Source of the DNA: an uncultured Saprospiraceae bacterium
Lineage (GTDB): Bacteria; Bacteroidota; Bacteroidia; Chitinophagales; Saprospiraceae
Length of the DNA stretch: 64,000 nucleotides
Reading direction: 5' to 3'
Assembly: GCA_937921595.1 (NCBI GenBank)
Contig: CAKZTD010000023.1
Span: 12,742-76,741 of the forward strand
Both the position numbers and the translations under genes were made by a program. Below the pieces are notes generated by a model, which was not told the DNA's origin, searched no databases, and saw only the letters and a program-made list of their open reading frames with translations. This document shows, piece by piece, positions 33,013 to 38,349 of the stretch; the stretch's first letter is position 1; the number at the start of each line of letters is the position of its first letter.

Positions 33013-36000
33013 ATGAAAACACCAAAGAAAAAAACATCATCCACAAACCACAAACCATCAACTCCCTTTTTCAACAAATCCGGAGAACAATCATTCTTTG
33101 CCCAAAACCCAAGCACACCTTTTTTCAACATACAACCCAAACTAAGCATCGGCCAGCCCAATGATAAATACGAAAAAGAAGCCGATGCAATGGCGGACCA
33201 AGTAACAAATACTAGCGTAAGTCAGCAACCAGAGTCAGTTATTCAAAGAAAATGCAATACCTGCGAAGAAGAAGTCCAGACTAAACCATTATTTGAGAAC
33301 ATCTCTCATTCTATTAAAAAGTCAACTAGTAATCATAAAGTTCAACGTAGTCTTTCTCTCGATGAGGAGGAACCAATCCAAGCTAAATCAAACTCACGTT
33401 CAGATACTTCAGTCCATTCTAATTTTGAGACACAATTAAAAACAAGTGCAAATTCAGGAGTACAGCTTTCACCGGACACTAGACAAGAAATGGAGTCTGG
33501 TTTTGGAGCAGATTTCAGCAAAGTTAGAATTCACAACAATTCAACTGCTGCAAGTTTGAGTAATAAAATAAATGCACAAGCTTTTACTCATGGCAATAAC
33601 ATTTATTTTAATCAAGGGAAATTTGCTCCTTCGAGTAATAGCGGAAAACATTTATTGGCGCACGAGCTGACACATACCATTCAGCAAGGAGCAAGTATAA
33701 AGAAAAAACCATCAGAAATTATTCAAGCAAAATGCGCAGATGCAGATTGCAAATCTACTGATCCATTAACACCAGCTTGTCCAAAGCCTAATACTTTTAG
33801 AACGAACCCCAAATTAGAAAGCATCAGGCAATCTGTTTTTGAATCCGCATCAGATTATGATTTATTAGAAAAAGGAGATGCTGATGATGCAGTCGTTTTG
33901 ATTCAAGCACTTTTATTAAATACAAATTGTATCGGCTATGATAGAATTGGACTTCGCGATGAAATGTCTCGAAAGGAATTTGGTCGTGAAACGGATAGAG
34001 CTATTCGACAATTTCAGTCCGGAAGAAATGGAGCGAATGGTATGCCATTAAGTGTCGACGGAGACATCGGACCAGGTACTTTGAGTGCAATGGATATAGA
34101 ACTCAGTCTCGCTCCAATAGCTCCTGCAAAACCTCCTGAAGCAGTAGGCAATTGTTTCGGAAAAGCAAAACATGGACCTGGAGAGAGTCAAGTTATAAAA
34201 CAAACCACTTTACCTCCTATTTTTCCTTTTTTACCTGCTTTCGCAGCTTGGGAGATTTCGAATTTCGATATCGATAAACATTTTTTAAAAACAGAACATA
34301 GAGCGTTTATCAGAAGTCAGATCATTCCTAAAATCAATGAAGCTCAACTAAAACACCCTACTGCGTCTGACCTTCATCTCCGAATTATAGGTGAAGCTAG
34401 TACAACCGGCGACGATGCTCATAATTTCGACCTCTCTAGCAGAAGAGGTTCCTGTACTGCAGAAACATTAATCGCCGAGGGAATAGATAGCAGTTTGATA
34501 AAAACACCTCTTAGCCCTTTTGGTGAGCAATTAGCCCAAGTACGACGAACTATATCTGGCGCTCCAATAATAGATGGCGTGGAAGATCGAACCGCAAGAA
34601 AAGTAAGCATAATTCTTGACTTAAGTTCGACTAAAGATGACTGCTCAGACACGGATAAGATGTTGCCTTCTAATAAATATTTAGCAAAGATTGCTTGCGC
34701 AGGATTTAACAATTTCCGTGTAAATATTGGGCATTTTGAAAATCCTGCTCAGCCAGTCTATCGAGAATTTATTTGGACCTCATCTATCCCTTTTCTCGAT
34801 GATTGTCAATTTCAAATTCCATCTTTTGCTGATATTTTTAGACCGGTATCTGCTTCAACAGAATTACAATTAGCAACTAAAAACCCAGATGAAGCAAATG
34901 CACCTTCTAGTTTCCAAGGATCAGTAAAATTATTATCAAATCTTCGTCAAGGTGAGTTTTTAAAAACGTCAGGTTCTGAAGCTGGCTCTCCTTTTTCAAT
35001 CTTTATTCCAGGTGAATGGAATTCTATTGACTGCTTAAATGAACATCAAGATACCGATGGATTTTTAAGACCCATTGGTCCTGTAAAATGCGGAGTAGTT
35101 CCTGCACCGCCGACGGTCGATGATTGTTATCCTTCTCAAGAAGATTGCCCTCCAGAAACCAGACAAGCATCAGCCAAAGAGTATGTTGCTCAAATGATTC
35201 GAGTATCAGGAAATCCTTTAGATGCCATTAAGCTAATTAAAAAACTAGCTAAAGCAGCTTCGGTTATTGATAAAATATTAGATTTCATTGGAATAAAAGC
35301 AATACTCGGCGGAGCTATTATTACCATAGGTTCTAAAGATCTTGATGCCCCTATTTATAGAACTTTTATTTTTGCTGGCGGCGGCTTTAGTGGCGCAGGT
35401 GGCAGCTCTATTAATGCTAATAAGATGAGTAGTAAAAAGTTTACGCTTGAGACACCTAAGCAGTTAGAAAAAAGTAGTTCTGGATTATTTCTCCAAGATT
35501 CCGATTTTGAAGGTTCTGCAAAATTAAAAATCATAGGAGGAACAAATAAAGAGCAGCTGACCATAGATGGAAATGGCGTTTCAAAAACAATTGATTTATA
35601 TGGTATCCTCTGTGATGGCGATTCAACAAGATCAGCAAGCGGTACACTAAAACCAATCACAAATGCTAGTTGTGGAAATTTACCTACCCTTCCTTTCGCA
35701 GAAGAGGATTGCAAAGATGATTGTTCAGATTCATTAAAATTATCAGAATTCCATAGGTTCAAATTTAAAACAGGACGAGCATCTCTATCAGCAATTCCTT
35801 TTGCAGGAAAACGAATCGCTAACCAAATGGGTAATTGTGGAGCAACTTTAGCTTTTATAAATATCGGTAATAGACCTAAAGAAGGAGAAACAGAAATCTA
35901 TCGAAAGTTCTTATTTATTGGAAAAAATGATCCTTGTAAATTCACAGTAGAAAAAAAGAATTTTAATGAATTTTTCATAGACCCCAAAGCACTGACTTAT

Positions 36001-38349: not shown

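Follow-up and report, generated by a model that had tools for sequence, protein, structure and literature searches.

A single open reading frame (ORF) in the 64,000-nt window, the stretch of an uncultured Saprospiraceae contig (CAKZTD010000023.1) analyzed here, encodes a giant protein that is, on well-supported evidence, an in-frame fusion of two separate eCIS cargo units. We consider it probable that this protein is an AlgoCIS-type eCIS “poly-cargo” that arose by in-frame fusion of two neighboring cargo genes and that acts by the mechanism proposed below. The class is a known one, since multi-module cargo is common in databases, and the giant is an instructive example of it; the PVC-metallopeptidase (equivalent to DUF4157), a fused “Tox-OmpA” class, and second copies of the module were already described by Zhang et al. 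2012 (PMC3482391). The giant has 1778 aa (196 kDa), starts with ATG, and contains no internal stops. Its features and the neighboring genes are listed in Table 1.

Table 1. Coordinates of the giant ORF, its domains, and flanking genes in the window.
Feature	Positions	Strand	Remarks
CIS tape-measure protein, directly upstream of the giant	31553..32944	+	PF19268, E 8.8e-110
Whole ORF, two fused eCIS cargo units	33013..38349	+	Second assembly with the same ORF
N-terminal leader, aa 1-151: basic N-terminus, PFF motifs, QPKLSIGQPNDKYEKEADAMADQV, IQRKCNTCEEE, EEEPIQAK	33013..33465	+	Presumed loading sequence
DUF4157/eCIS_core module 1, aa 152-227	33466..33693	+	HELTH at 33661-33675
PG_binding_1-like helical segment, aa 294-360	33892..34092	+	Sub-cut-off Pfam match and homologue annotation
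OmpA-like domain, aa 381-536, invariant in the unit-1 family	34153..34620	+
Repeat R1, aa 537-701, beta-rich	34621..35115	+	hhalign, AF2 model
Repeat R2, aa 702-891, carrying a helical, hydrophobic insertion (aa 751-775)	35116..35685	+
Repeat R3, aa 892-1069	35686..36219	+	hhalign, AF2 model
Unit-1 C-terminal alpha/beta domain, aa 1070-1205	36220..36627	+	End point of standalone members
Fusion junction/linker, aa 1206-1297: degenerate second-leader remnant (KPKEKEDTIIDTIEDVL), then VQAKCSECEEQ	36628..36903	+
DUF4157/eCIS_core module 2, aa 1298-1373	36904..37131	+	HELTH at 37099-37113
Unit-2 C-terminal domain, aa 1379-1778, putative HExxH metallopeptidase	37147..38346	+	Third HELTH at 37882-37896; conserved T-E at aa 1683-1684
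Second cargo gene, 590 aa: leader, DUF4157, and unassigned C-terminal region	38410..40182	+
eCIS AAA+ ATPase (Afp15/Pvc15/Alg15-type), presumed cargo loader	40271..41596	+	Loading role from the literature

The same ORF, uninterrupted, is present in an independent ENA assembly, ERZ6863577 (a 31,655-bp contig, locus L004). When the two copies of the gene were compared, 12 nucleotide differences scattered across both halves were found, 11 of them synonymous and one non-synonymous (I1594R). Since the second assembly is not identical to the first and has the same uninterrupted ORF, the continuity taken up in an earlier note on this DNA is not an assembly accident, and the prevalence of synonymous differences indicates that the gene is real and constrained. 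An A-rich sequence marks the junction (GAAAAGAAAAAAGAAAAGCC); indel errors are favored in such a context, and a sequencing or assembly error or a recent pseudogene-like read-through uniting two genes would be compatible with it. The second assembly, however, keeps the frame across this very junction and differs from the first in the synonymous manner described, the remaining two frames are rich in stops there, and analogous fusions are present in other genomes. An assembly artefact was rejected on these grounds, and error or read-through of any kind appears highly improbable as the origin of the long ORF. There is also no in-frame Met between aa ~1100 and DUF4157 module 2 from which unit 2 could be restarted, and a separate internal translation start for unit 2 was rejected for this reason.

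The two DUF4157 modules that the earlier note had recognized within one ORF were recovered by Pfam PF13699 (DUF4157, renamed eCIS_core) in two stretches, with E = 4.7e-63 and 209.8 bits (cut-off 22). A DUF4157 HMM that we built ourselves placed them at aa 146-232 and 1292-1378. The HExxHxxQ signature reads HELTHTIQQ at aa 217 and HELTHVVQQ at aa 1363, so the nucleotide coordinates previously given for the two HELTH motifs are exact. Both modules keep every invariant column of an 18-module DUF4157 alignment. In a windowed self-BLAST with the query’s own window masked (a plain self-BLAST returns the identity match only), modules 1 and 2 were 51% identical over 100 aa, and the similarity reached upstream of the modules, where aa 68-180 aligned with aa 1238-1326 (E = 3e-10). 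The DUF4157 module alignments contain no conserved Glu downstream of HExxHxxQ as a third zinc ligand. When the 18-module profile was compared with the PDB, only BepA (M48) was matched, weakly and around the HExxH (E = 0.03), and VgrG2b was not recovered; a phmmer search of the PDB with aa 1-256 of the giant gave zero matches.

In the leader (aa 1-151), 73% of residues are polar or disorder-promoting and the GRAVY is -1.09, values that describe composition only. Leader and module 1 together (aa 5-233) are 42% identical to aa 7-244 of the neighboring 590-aa cargo, and the leader motifs are shared with the leaders of three other proteins (P0124, P0002, and P0004). By composition and by this identity, the giant has the disordered N-terminal loading sequence common to cargos of the locus; that the leader is the loading sequence is presumed by analogy with the Cgo leaders of AlgoCIS. 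Two linker motifs had been reported ahead of both modules. For (I/V)Q(R/A)KC..CEE(E/Q) this is correct (aa 77-87 and 1247-1257); EEE.(I/V)QAK occurs only once, at aa 118. A shorter motif, [ILV]Q[RKA]K, brackets both DUF4157 modules in the giant and is enriched ~10-fold in DUF4157-flanking linkers (318 observed versus 8.5 +/- 2.6 in shuffles), counts that are non-independent because the sample consists of related proteins.

The genes of the locus follow the order Pvc16_N, two sheath genes, two gp19 tube genes, CIS_tube, VgrG, gp25, Baseplate_J, Alg12-like, CIS_TMP, the giant, the 590-aa DUF4157 gene, and AAA. The eCIS is of the AlgoCIS type: the Alg12 of AlgoCIS is matched with E = 3.5e-170 and its sheath with E = 8.7e-159. 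The giant thus has a position in an eCIS cluster beside the AAA+ ATPase, with CIS_TMP on one side and the second DUF4157 gene and AAA on the other. DUF4157 proteins are likewise encoded between tape-measure and ATPase genes in related loci (L001, L002, L016, and L017). No immunity gene adjoining the giant was seen at the locus. One related locus has a holin gene close by.

Unit 1 (aa 1-~1206) is a member of a rare family in which at least 25 standalone proteins, 1050-1270 aa long, align collinearly with its aa ~40-1206/1216 and stop at the same point. The layout of the family is leader, DUF4157, PG_binding_1-like segment, OmpA-like domain, three beta-rich repeats homologous to one another, and C-terminal domain. 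When the unit-1 body was used for a pattern scan with a single motif, the family was located in 11 of 185,579 species genomes; a word-indexed homologue search with the unit-1 body alone gave only 11 matches. Members come from Proteobacteria, Bacteroidota, Acidobacteriota, and Solirubrobacterales, and at least 16 cysteines are invariant across all 32 members aligned.

Of the peptidoglycan-binding-type segments proposed in the earlier note, the PG_binding_1-like one (aa 294-360) scores 18.3 bits with PF01471, below the gathering cut-off of 23. Precomputed PF01471 matches on close homologues, weak matches of the unit-1 family profile to PG_binding_1-containing structures (4nso, 1lbu, 4lpq, and 5nm7), and a helical bundle in the AF2 model are consistent with the assignment; this region is covered by only 19 of the 32 aligned members. 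The OmpA-like segment of the giant alone is also below the Pfam cut-off (PF00691, 21.1 bits versus 27.2), and NCBIfam gave only weak OmpA-type matches on the giant. The unit-1 family profile, when compared with the PDB, matched OmpA C-domains, including RmpM and OmpA structures, with E = 5e-6 to 2e-5. Foldseek with the unit-1 AlphaFold model (pLDDT 83) returned more than 40 OmpA/Pal structures at probability 1.00, with TM(target) of 0.6-0.75 to OmpA, Pal, and YfiB. Fold and sequence match thus agree on an OmpA-like domain, which starts earlier than had been assigned. In OmpA-like domains, a conserved Asp and a conserved Arg bind diaminopimelate of peptidoglycan, as seen in AbOmpA and Pal structures. 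In the giant, the canonical Arg is kept and invariant (R478), and an invariant Ser (S463, in “GEASTT”) stands in place of the canonical Asp; because of this replacement, peptidoglycan binding by the domain is not assured.

The existence of three repeats, another claim of the earlier note, was borne out by profile-profile comparison with hhalign (99.7% for R1-R3, 98.8% for R2-R3, and 98.3% for R1-R2). R1 has neither a Pfam nor a PDB match. Foldseek against the PDB, run with the entire unit-1 model as the query and with output lacking query ranges, gave credible matches for the OmpA-like domain only and none for the repeats or the C-terminal domain; against viral structures (BFVD), nothing was found at E <= 0.001. 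No peptidoglycan hydrolase domain was detected in the giant with Pfam or NCBIfam. The protein has no Sec signal and a single, marginal, hydrophobic segment.

Unit 2 (aa ~1206-1778) matches standalone proteins composed of leader, DUF4157, and a domain at the C-terminus (CTD), such as P0124 (674 aa) and P0126 (648 aa); in related loci, the standalone homologues are encoded directly upstream of the AAA+ ATPase gene of the eCIS. The CTD contains a third HELTH at aa 1624, absent from the earlier note. While a word-indexed search for CTD relatives gave 1 match, an exhaustive representative search gave 120. The HExxH is invariant in 61 of 61 aligned family members, and a T-E pair follows 56 aa downstream in 50 of the 61. 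Most members have HExxHxxH, with Q at the last position in the giant. No member has a Pfam family match over the CTD; on the CTD of the giant, DUF6782 scores 21.7 versus a cut-off of 27. The family profile produced only chance-level matches in the PDB (a haemoglobin linker and, around the HExxH, a WLM protease with E = 0.15), and an AF2 model from a two-sequence alignment was unusable (pLDDT 44.7). There are no cysteines in unit 2 after aa 1254. The CTD is a putative metallopeptidase effector, and Pfam has no entry for its family. Two uncharacterized effector families are thereby defined, a cysteine-rich family with the OmpA-like domain and triple repeat and the HExxH C-terminal family.

The existence of standalone homologues for both unit 1 and the unit-2 CTD sustains the earlier reading of “two cargo units fused head to tail.” In Nitrosomonas marina and in a Cytophagales MAG, separate DUF4157 genes lie behind or beside standalone unit-1 homologues. 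Other unit-1 family members (P0005, P0016, and P0018) are fused to different downstream units, so fusion recurs; the exact combination of unit 1 and unit 2 was found by homologue searches only in the lineage of the giant. The rarity that the earlier note implied for a two-module protein did not hold: among the 120 best database matches to the two-module giant as query, a ranking that favors multi-module proteins, DUF4157 is present twice in 79 and three times in 16. The HExxH is intact in 110 of the 111 internal DUF4157 modules of multi-module proteins. In the giant, module 2 keeps every invariant residue; the leader of unit 2 has degenerated, and unit 2 no longer has a start codon of its own. 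DUF4157, the domain by which eCIS effectors are recognized, is not needed for loading in AlgoCIS. The giant shows a second cargo unit riding behind the first, with the internal leader decaying and the internal DUF4157 kept intact. Since internal units keep DUF4157 with its HExxH, these data argue that the module serves each effector (in release, refolding, or activity) rather than loading.

In the mechanism that we propose, the AAA+ ATPase of the locus would recognize the single disordered N-terminal leader, the entire 196-kDa chain would be threaded into the tube lumen, and contraction would expel it into the target. An oxidizing, wall-containing compartment, the envelope of another bacterium, is the likely site of action, since unit 1 has two peptidoglycan-binding-type domains and many invariant cysteines. 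There, the two DUF4157 zincin modules might cut linkers with the hydrophobic-Q-(R/K/A)-K motif, which would free two effectors from the chain, the wall-binding body and, separately, the metallopeptidase; cleavage and release are the weakest step of the scheme. The PVC-metallopeptidase was predicted to be a releasing peptidase (Zhang et al. 2012, PMC3482391). In AlgoCIS, the leader is required for cargo loading and DUF4157 is not, and the toxicity of Cgo1 is independent of either HExxH motif; the literature examined contains no report of DUF4157 cleaving eCIS cargo. The broader proposal, that multi-module DUF4157 proteins are self-processing poly-cargos whose internal zincins cut the flanking linkers of this type after ejection, is speculative and unlikely as it stands. 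If it is true, the target envelope would receive a disulfide-stabilized peptidoglycan-binding effector, based on a ~170-190-aa repeat that had not been described before, and a separate metallopeptidase, and per-effector release would be a function for the most widespread unexplained eCIS domain.

The giant could also act as one unprocessed protein, in which unit 1 holds the unit-2 metallopeptidase at peptidoglycan in a lysin-like manner and the DUF4157 modules do not cleave but serve, e.g., as chaperones, refolding aids, or toxins themselves. Wall-binding domains and a peptidase-like domain do share one chain, the lack of reported cargo proteolysis and the dispensability of DUF4157 for loading fit such a role, and the DUF4157-family domain of VgrG2b is itself a periplasmic toxin. 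A dedicated pairing is at odds, however, with the conservation of both halves as independent proteins, with the unrelated second units of other unit-1 members, and with the restriction of the exact combination to one lineage. Opportunistic concatenation thus fits better than a designed partnership, and an unprocessed, jointly acting protein is possible but rather unlikely.

Three roles had been considered in the earlier note, namely, an antibacterial target, an envelope anchor for the particle, and producer-cell lysis and release. Without a Sec signal or clear transmembrane anchor, and with an eCIS leader, invariant cysteines, and producers whose envelopes differ, the evidence leans toward an antibacterial envelope target and away from the other two. 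Judged by its domains, the giant probably acts in the bacterial cell envelope; three DUF4157 proteins, VgrG2b-Cter, Tpe1, and BDI_2459, have toxicity confined to the periplasm. A giant that is not injected and uses its peptidoglycan-binding domains as a particle anchor or as a lysis/release factor in the producer would account for the PG_binding_1-like and OmpA-like domains. eCIS are released by lysis, a holin gene accompanies a related locus, as mentioned above, and a passage in Geller et al. speculates that some toxins may help lysis. Against a producer-side role, the giant has no Sec/Tat signal, lipobox, or detectable peptidoglycan hydrolase domain, and its N-terminus is a cargo-type leader common to the neighboring DUF4157 protein. 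The gene is located between tape-measure and ATPase, as DUF4157 genes of the related loci are, and hosts from Proteobacteria, Bacteroidota, Acidobacteriota, and Solirubrobacterales differ in envelope. Since, moreover, both DUF4157 proteins from the AlgoCIS cluster have been shown to fill the lumen of the tube, we regard a function on the producer side as decidedly improbable.

These lumen-filling proteins of Algoriphagus machipongonensis are Cgo1 (ALPR1_12695, 498 aa, two HExxH motifs) and Cgo2 (ALPR1_12690, 1228 aa). In the AlgoCIS cluster, as in the locus of the giant, there are genes for two DUF4157 proteins that have similar disordered leaders, a centrally placed DUF4157, and differing C-terminal parts. 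Cgo1, similarly to unit 2, has its second HExxH in the C-terminal domain, and the length of Cgo2 resembles that of standalone unit-1 proteins, the bodies being set beside Cgo1 and Cgo2 by description only. In contrast to Cgo1 and Cgo2, the giant joins two such units in one polypeptide with one functional-looking leader; wall-binding domains are not mentioned for Cgo2 in the literature examined. Algoriphagus is absent among the 11 genomes matched in the unit-1 motif scan, and cluster look-ups for CTD relatives gave no Algoriphagus protein and hence no Cgo1.

The toxins of Zhang et al. 2012 (PMC3482391) resemble the giant in having an N-terminal HExxHxxQ zincin followed by variable toxin domains, in their PVC/eCIS loci, and in the frequent lack of an immunity gene. 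One toxin class there is an OmpA-type C-terminal domain, reported for Proteobacteria and Cyanobacteria only, whereas the giant comes from Bacteroidota. Second metallopeptidase copies are noted at the extreme C-terminus, as toxins; in the giant, the second copy is internal and is followed by a 400-aa effector domain. That work describes neither the triple repeat nor the C-terminal HExxH family. As far as the consulted passages of Geller et al. 2021 and Danov et al. 2024 describe them, eCIS-associated toxins also have DUF4157 near the N-terminus after a disordered leader, linkers to the toxin domain of up to >1000 aa, and adjacent DUF4157 genes with no obvious immunity gene. In those passages, DUF4157 is scored yes/no with no discussion of multi-module proteins, of which there are at least 95 among the matches here.

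The VgrG2b C-terminal domain and Tpe1 are, like the modules of the giant, DUF4157-annotated HExxH domains and are delivered by a contractile T6SS. Unlike the giant, they are spike-fused or cargo of the T6SS and come with a periplasmic immunity protein, and the giant’s modules have no detectable sequence match to VgrG2b or other PDB chains. VgrG2b/Tpe1 are toxic in the periplasm and need HExxH for this toxicity, and the domain does not hydrolyze peptidoglycan (Wood et al. 2019). This precedent indicates that DUF4157-type modules can act in the bacterial envelope. As a natural fusion, the giant also bears on the engineering of eCIS for multi-protein delivery.

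The giant gene holds the only long ORF across its stretch, a stop-free frame for a protein of predicted 196 kDa. The earlier note had read this ORF as uninterrupted, and the same frame was found in a separate assembly (ENA ERZ6863577, locus L004), which has 19 differences from the window in 11.3 kb. Twelve of the 19 fall within the giant gene, across both halves; 11 are synonymous and one is non-synonymous. Since the separate assembly keeps the frame and its differences are mostly synonymous, an assembly accident is rejected as the source of the ORF; the gene is real and constrained. 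The two DUF4157 modules proposed for it were likewise recovered by Pfam (PF13699, renamed "eCIS core domain"; 209.8 bits, two stretches). Two HELTH motifs had been placed correctly, and a third had gone unmentioned. In a windowed self-comparison, giant aa 126-225 and 1273-1371 were 51% identical, and the likeness extended upstream of the modules (aa 68-180 versus 1238-1326, E = 3e-10).

Coordinates of features in the window and in compared loci (nucleotides unless marked aa)
Feature	Position	Strand	Remarks
ORF-poor stretch	10238-12182		~1.9 kb; upstream of ftsY and eCIS cluster
tRNA-Arg(ACG)	11181-11257	+	in ORF-poor stretch
eCIS cluster genes	13638-41596		order: Pvc16_N, two sheath, two gp19 tube, CIS_tube/LysM, VgrG, gp25, Baseplate_J, Alg12-like, fibre or PKD-like, CIS tape measure, giant, 590-aa DUF4157, AAA+ ATPase
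Giant	33013-38349	+	1778 aa
HELTH motifs of giant	33661-33675; 37099-37113; 37882-37896		
Unit-1 body	33733-36627 (aa 241-1205)		22 cysteines, 16 of them invariant
PG_binding_1-like helical segment	giant aa ~294-360		missing in some family members
OmpA-like domain	giant aa ~381-536		invariant in unit-1 family
Three repeats	giant aa 537-701, 702-891, 892-1069		
Hydrophobic segment	35263-35337 (aa 751-775)		ILDFIGIKAILGGAIITIG
Separate alpha/beta domain	giant aa 1070-1205		
Unit 2 past CxxC motif	36775-38346 (aa 1255-1778)		zero cysteines
Second cargo	38410-40182	+	590 aa; aa 7-244 (leader and DUF4157) 42% identical to giant aa 5-233
Subtilase (Peptidase_S8)	41725-43779	+	after AAA+ ATPase; lamin-tail domain
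SprB-repeat protein	49276-54207	+	1643 aa
SprB-repeat protein	54292-58473	-	1393 aa
L016 subtilase	5529-7547		after AAA+ ATPase; lamin-tail domain
L016 Phage_holin_4_2 gene	8205-8540		
L001 P0124 gene	9057-11081		
L001 subtilase	18242-20131		after AAA+ ATPase

The proposal that two cargo units are fused here is borne out by matches of both halves to standalone proteins. The best matches to unit 1 (aa 1 to ~1206) are standalone proteins of 1050-1270 aa, collinear with giant aa ~40-1206/1216 and ending there, such as a Nitrosomonas marina "OmpA family protein" (1227 aa, 47% identity) and a Cytophagales MAG protein (1258 aa). For the C-terminal domain (CTD) in unit 2 (aa ~1206-1778), the closest relatives are standalone proteins with the layout leader, DUF4157, CTD, namely P0124 (674 aa, 50% identity) and P0126 (648 aa). 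In the related Bacteroidota loci that encode them, their genes lie directly upstream of the one for the AAA+ ATPase. At the giant's junction, a 92-aa polar linker is followed by VQAKCSECEEQ and the second DUF4157. Compared to true cargo N-termini, the unit-2 leader motif QxKLxIGQPNDxxExEADxxADxV has become KPKEKEDTIIDTIEDVL, the PFF motifs are lost from the remnant, and no in-frame Met was found ahead of module 2. The internal leader is decayed and the internal DUF4157 intact. These alignments identify the giant as two cargo-type genes, each independent elsewhere, that have fused inside an AlgoCIS-like cluster. Since other unit-1 family members (P0005, P0016, and P0018) are joined to different second units, fusion with the next cargo gene is recurrent; P0005, a 1700-aa Agriterribacter protein, is encoded directly after the tape-measure gene.

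The architecture is less unusual than the earlier note supposed. Among the best 120 matches to the giant, 79 have two and 16 have three DUF4157 modules, an existence count and not a frequency, since a two-module query lifts multi-module proteins in the ranking. These multi-module proteins come from Cyanobacteria (Roseofilum, Limnospira, and Microcoleus) and Bacteroidota (Psychroserpens, Crocinitomix, Chitinophaga, Rufibacter, and Aquimarina), and typically hundreds of residues follow the last module (median 668). Much of this had been published before. Zhang et al. 2012 (PMC3482391) named the domain PVC-metallopeptidase, predicted that it acts as a releasing peptidase by autoproteolysis, and described a "Tox-OmpA" class joined to it as well as second copies at C-termini. 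Through Geller et al. 2021 and Danov et al. 2024, DUF4157 became established as a core and effector marker in eCIS, without assigned function.

A single-motif pattern scan found the unit-1 family in only 11 of 185,579 species genomes, from Beta- and Deltaproteobacteria, Cytophagales/Bacteroidia, Balneolaceae, Acidobacteriota, and Solirubrobacterales; in the examined loci, its gene has an eCIS-type neighborhood and adjoins other DUF4157 genes. Unit 1 is rich in invariant cysteines and includes a fold of the OmpA-like type. In an AlphaFold2 model of giant aa 232-1216 (32 family sequences, pLDDT 83.2), the OmpA-C-like segment noted earlier matched the C-domains of OmpA, Pal, YfiB, and PorE with a Foldseek probability of 1.00, and the family profile matched OmpA C-domains with E = 5e-6. 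In the alignment to OmpA, the canonical Arg is invariant, while the canonical Asp is replaced by an invariant Ser (GEASTT versus GYTD). The suggested PG_binding_1-like segment stands as a helical segment that falls below the Pfam cut-off. The three repeats described as novel are homologous to each other (98.3-99.7% probability, profile-profile comparison) and have no Pfam or PDB counterpart. Sixteen cysteines are invariant in 32 of 32 aligned family members; the cysteine contrast between the giant's halves may reflect different folding or target environments. The giant's only hydrophobic segment (Kyte-Doolittle 19-residue mean 1.88) sits in an insertion of the second repeat, R2, that is partly modeled with low confidence; it could interact with a membrane or be no more than a buried strand.

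The last part of unit 2 is a conserved HExxH domain. A search of 1.84 billion representative proteins gave 120 relatives of this 400-aa CTD; HExxH is invariant in 61 of 61 aligned members, and a T-E pair follows 56 residues later in 50 of the 61. Most members have HExxHxxH, with Q in the giant at the last position. No Pfam family was matched in the CTD region of any member, the CTD had no significant relative in the PDB, and its AlphaFold model (pLDDT 44.7) was too poor to use. DUF4157 lies upstream in 22 of the 120 relatives by a purpose-built module HMM and in 13 of the 61 aligned members by Pfam scan. Many relatives without a detected DUF4157 have leaders of eCIS type at their start; P0125 consists of such a leader and the CTD, with no DUF4157.

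Both modules had been reported to follow two linker motifs: (I/V)Q(R/A)KC..CEE(E/Q) does precede each, while EEE.(I/V)QAK has a single copy, at aa 118. The (I/V)Q(R/A)K element is part of a more general motif, [ILV]Q[RKA]K, which in the 120 best matches to the giant occurs 8.9 times per 1000 aa near DUF4157 modules (120 aa before and 40 aa after) versus 0.9 elsewhere, with 318 occurrences against 8.5 +/- 2.6 in composition-preserving shuffles. Since the 120 sequences are related, this enrichment is a lead and not a statistic. Occurrences peak 15-45 aa ahead of the module and 0-10 aa past it, and in the giant (aa 77, 122, 237, and 1247, plus IQRR at 1395) they bracket both modules. In the P0124 leader (aa ~85-185), tandem EEEE(A)QTMLQKQG / LQTSIQRQ units form an array in which the hydrophobic-Q-(R/K)-(K/Q) linker motif is repeated many times ahead of DUF4157.

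The window comes from a Bacteroidota chromosome; it has SprB repeats and several T9SS C-terminal sorting domains, and its GC content is 36.7%. Since its Alg12-like protein and sheath match AlgoCIS Algo12 (E = 3.5e-170) and the AlgoCIS sheath (E = 8.7e-159), the eCIS is assigned by homology to the AlgoCIS type. The DUF4157 proteins of AlgoCIS, Cgo1 (498 aa, with HExxH in DUF4157 and CTD) and Cgo2 (1228 aa), occupy the tube lumen and are gone after contraction; according to a 2026 preprint, their disordered N-terminal domain is needed for loading. In the window's second cargo, no family was matched in the C-terminal ~340 aa, and the sole additional Pfam match, a weak Peptidase_M91, overlaps the DUF4157 module (aa 155-245).

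The giant is a DUF4157 eCIS effector of polymorphic-toxin type. We infer three steps, with confidence falling from loading through envelope action to unit separation. The AAA+ ATPase would load the giant into the tube via its single N-terminal leader. The giant would then act in a bacterial envelope, because it has wall-binding-type domains, invariant cysteines suggesting disulfides, and no Sec signal, because producers have diverse envelopes, and because other DUF4157 proteins are toxic only in the periplasm. Of the roles raised earlier (antibacterial target, envelope anchor for the particle, or producer-cell lysis and release), an antibacterial envelope target is favored. Finally, the DUF4157 modules might separate the units at the flanking motifs. 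Against such cleavage, DUF4157 and CTD are dispensable for loading in AlgoCIS (2026 preprint), HExxH motifs are dispensable for Cgo1 toxicity, and no third zinc ligand is evident in alignments of the modules; the only structural hint is a weak match to M48 BepA. The giant offers a natural experiment on the role of DUF4157 and an entry point to two uncharacterised effector families.

In the window, as in the related loci L016 and L001, the gene after the eCIS AAA+ ATPase encodes a subtilase. This enzyme may be an accessory conserved in this lineage of eCIS, e.g., a processing protease. The L016 holin gene, which lies some few genes past a related eCIS cluster, would fit release by lysis; none was noticed within the window. 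Rfam found nothing in the whole window beyond tRNA-Arg(ACG). The two giant SprB-repeat proteins, T9SS-sorted and encoded convergently downstream of the eCIS, are probably surface adhesins with no relation to it.
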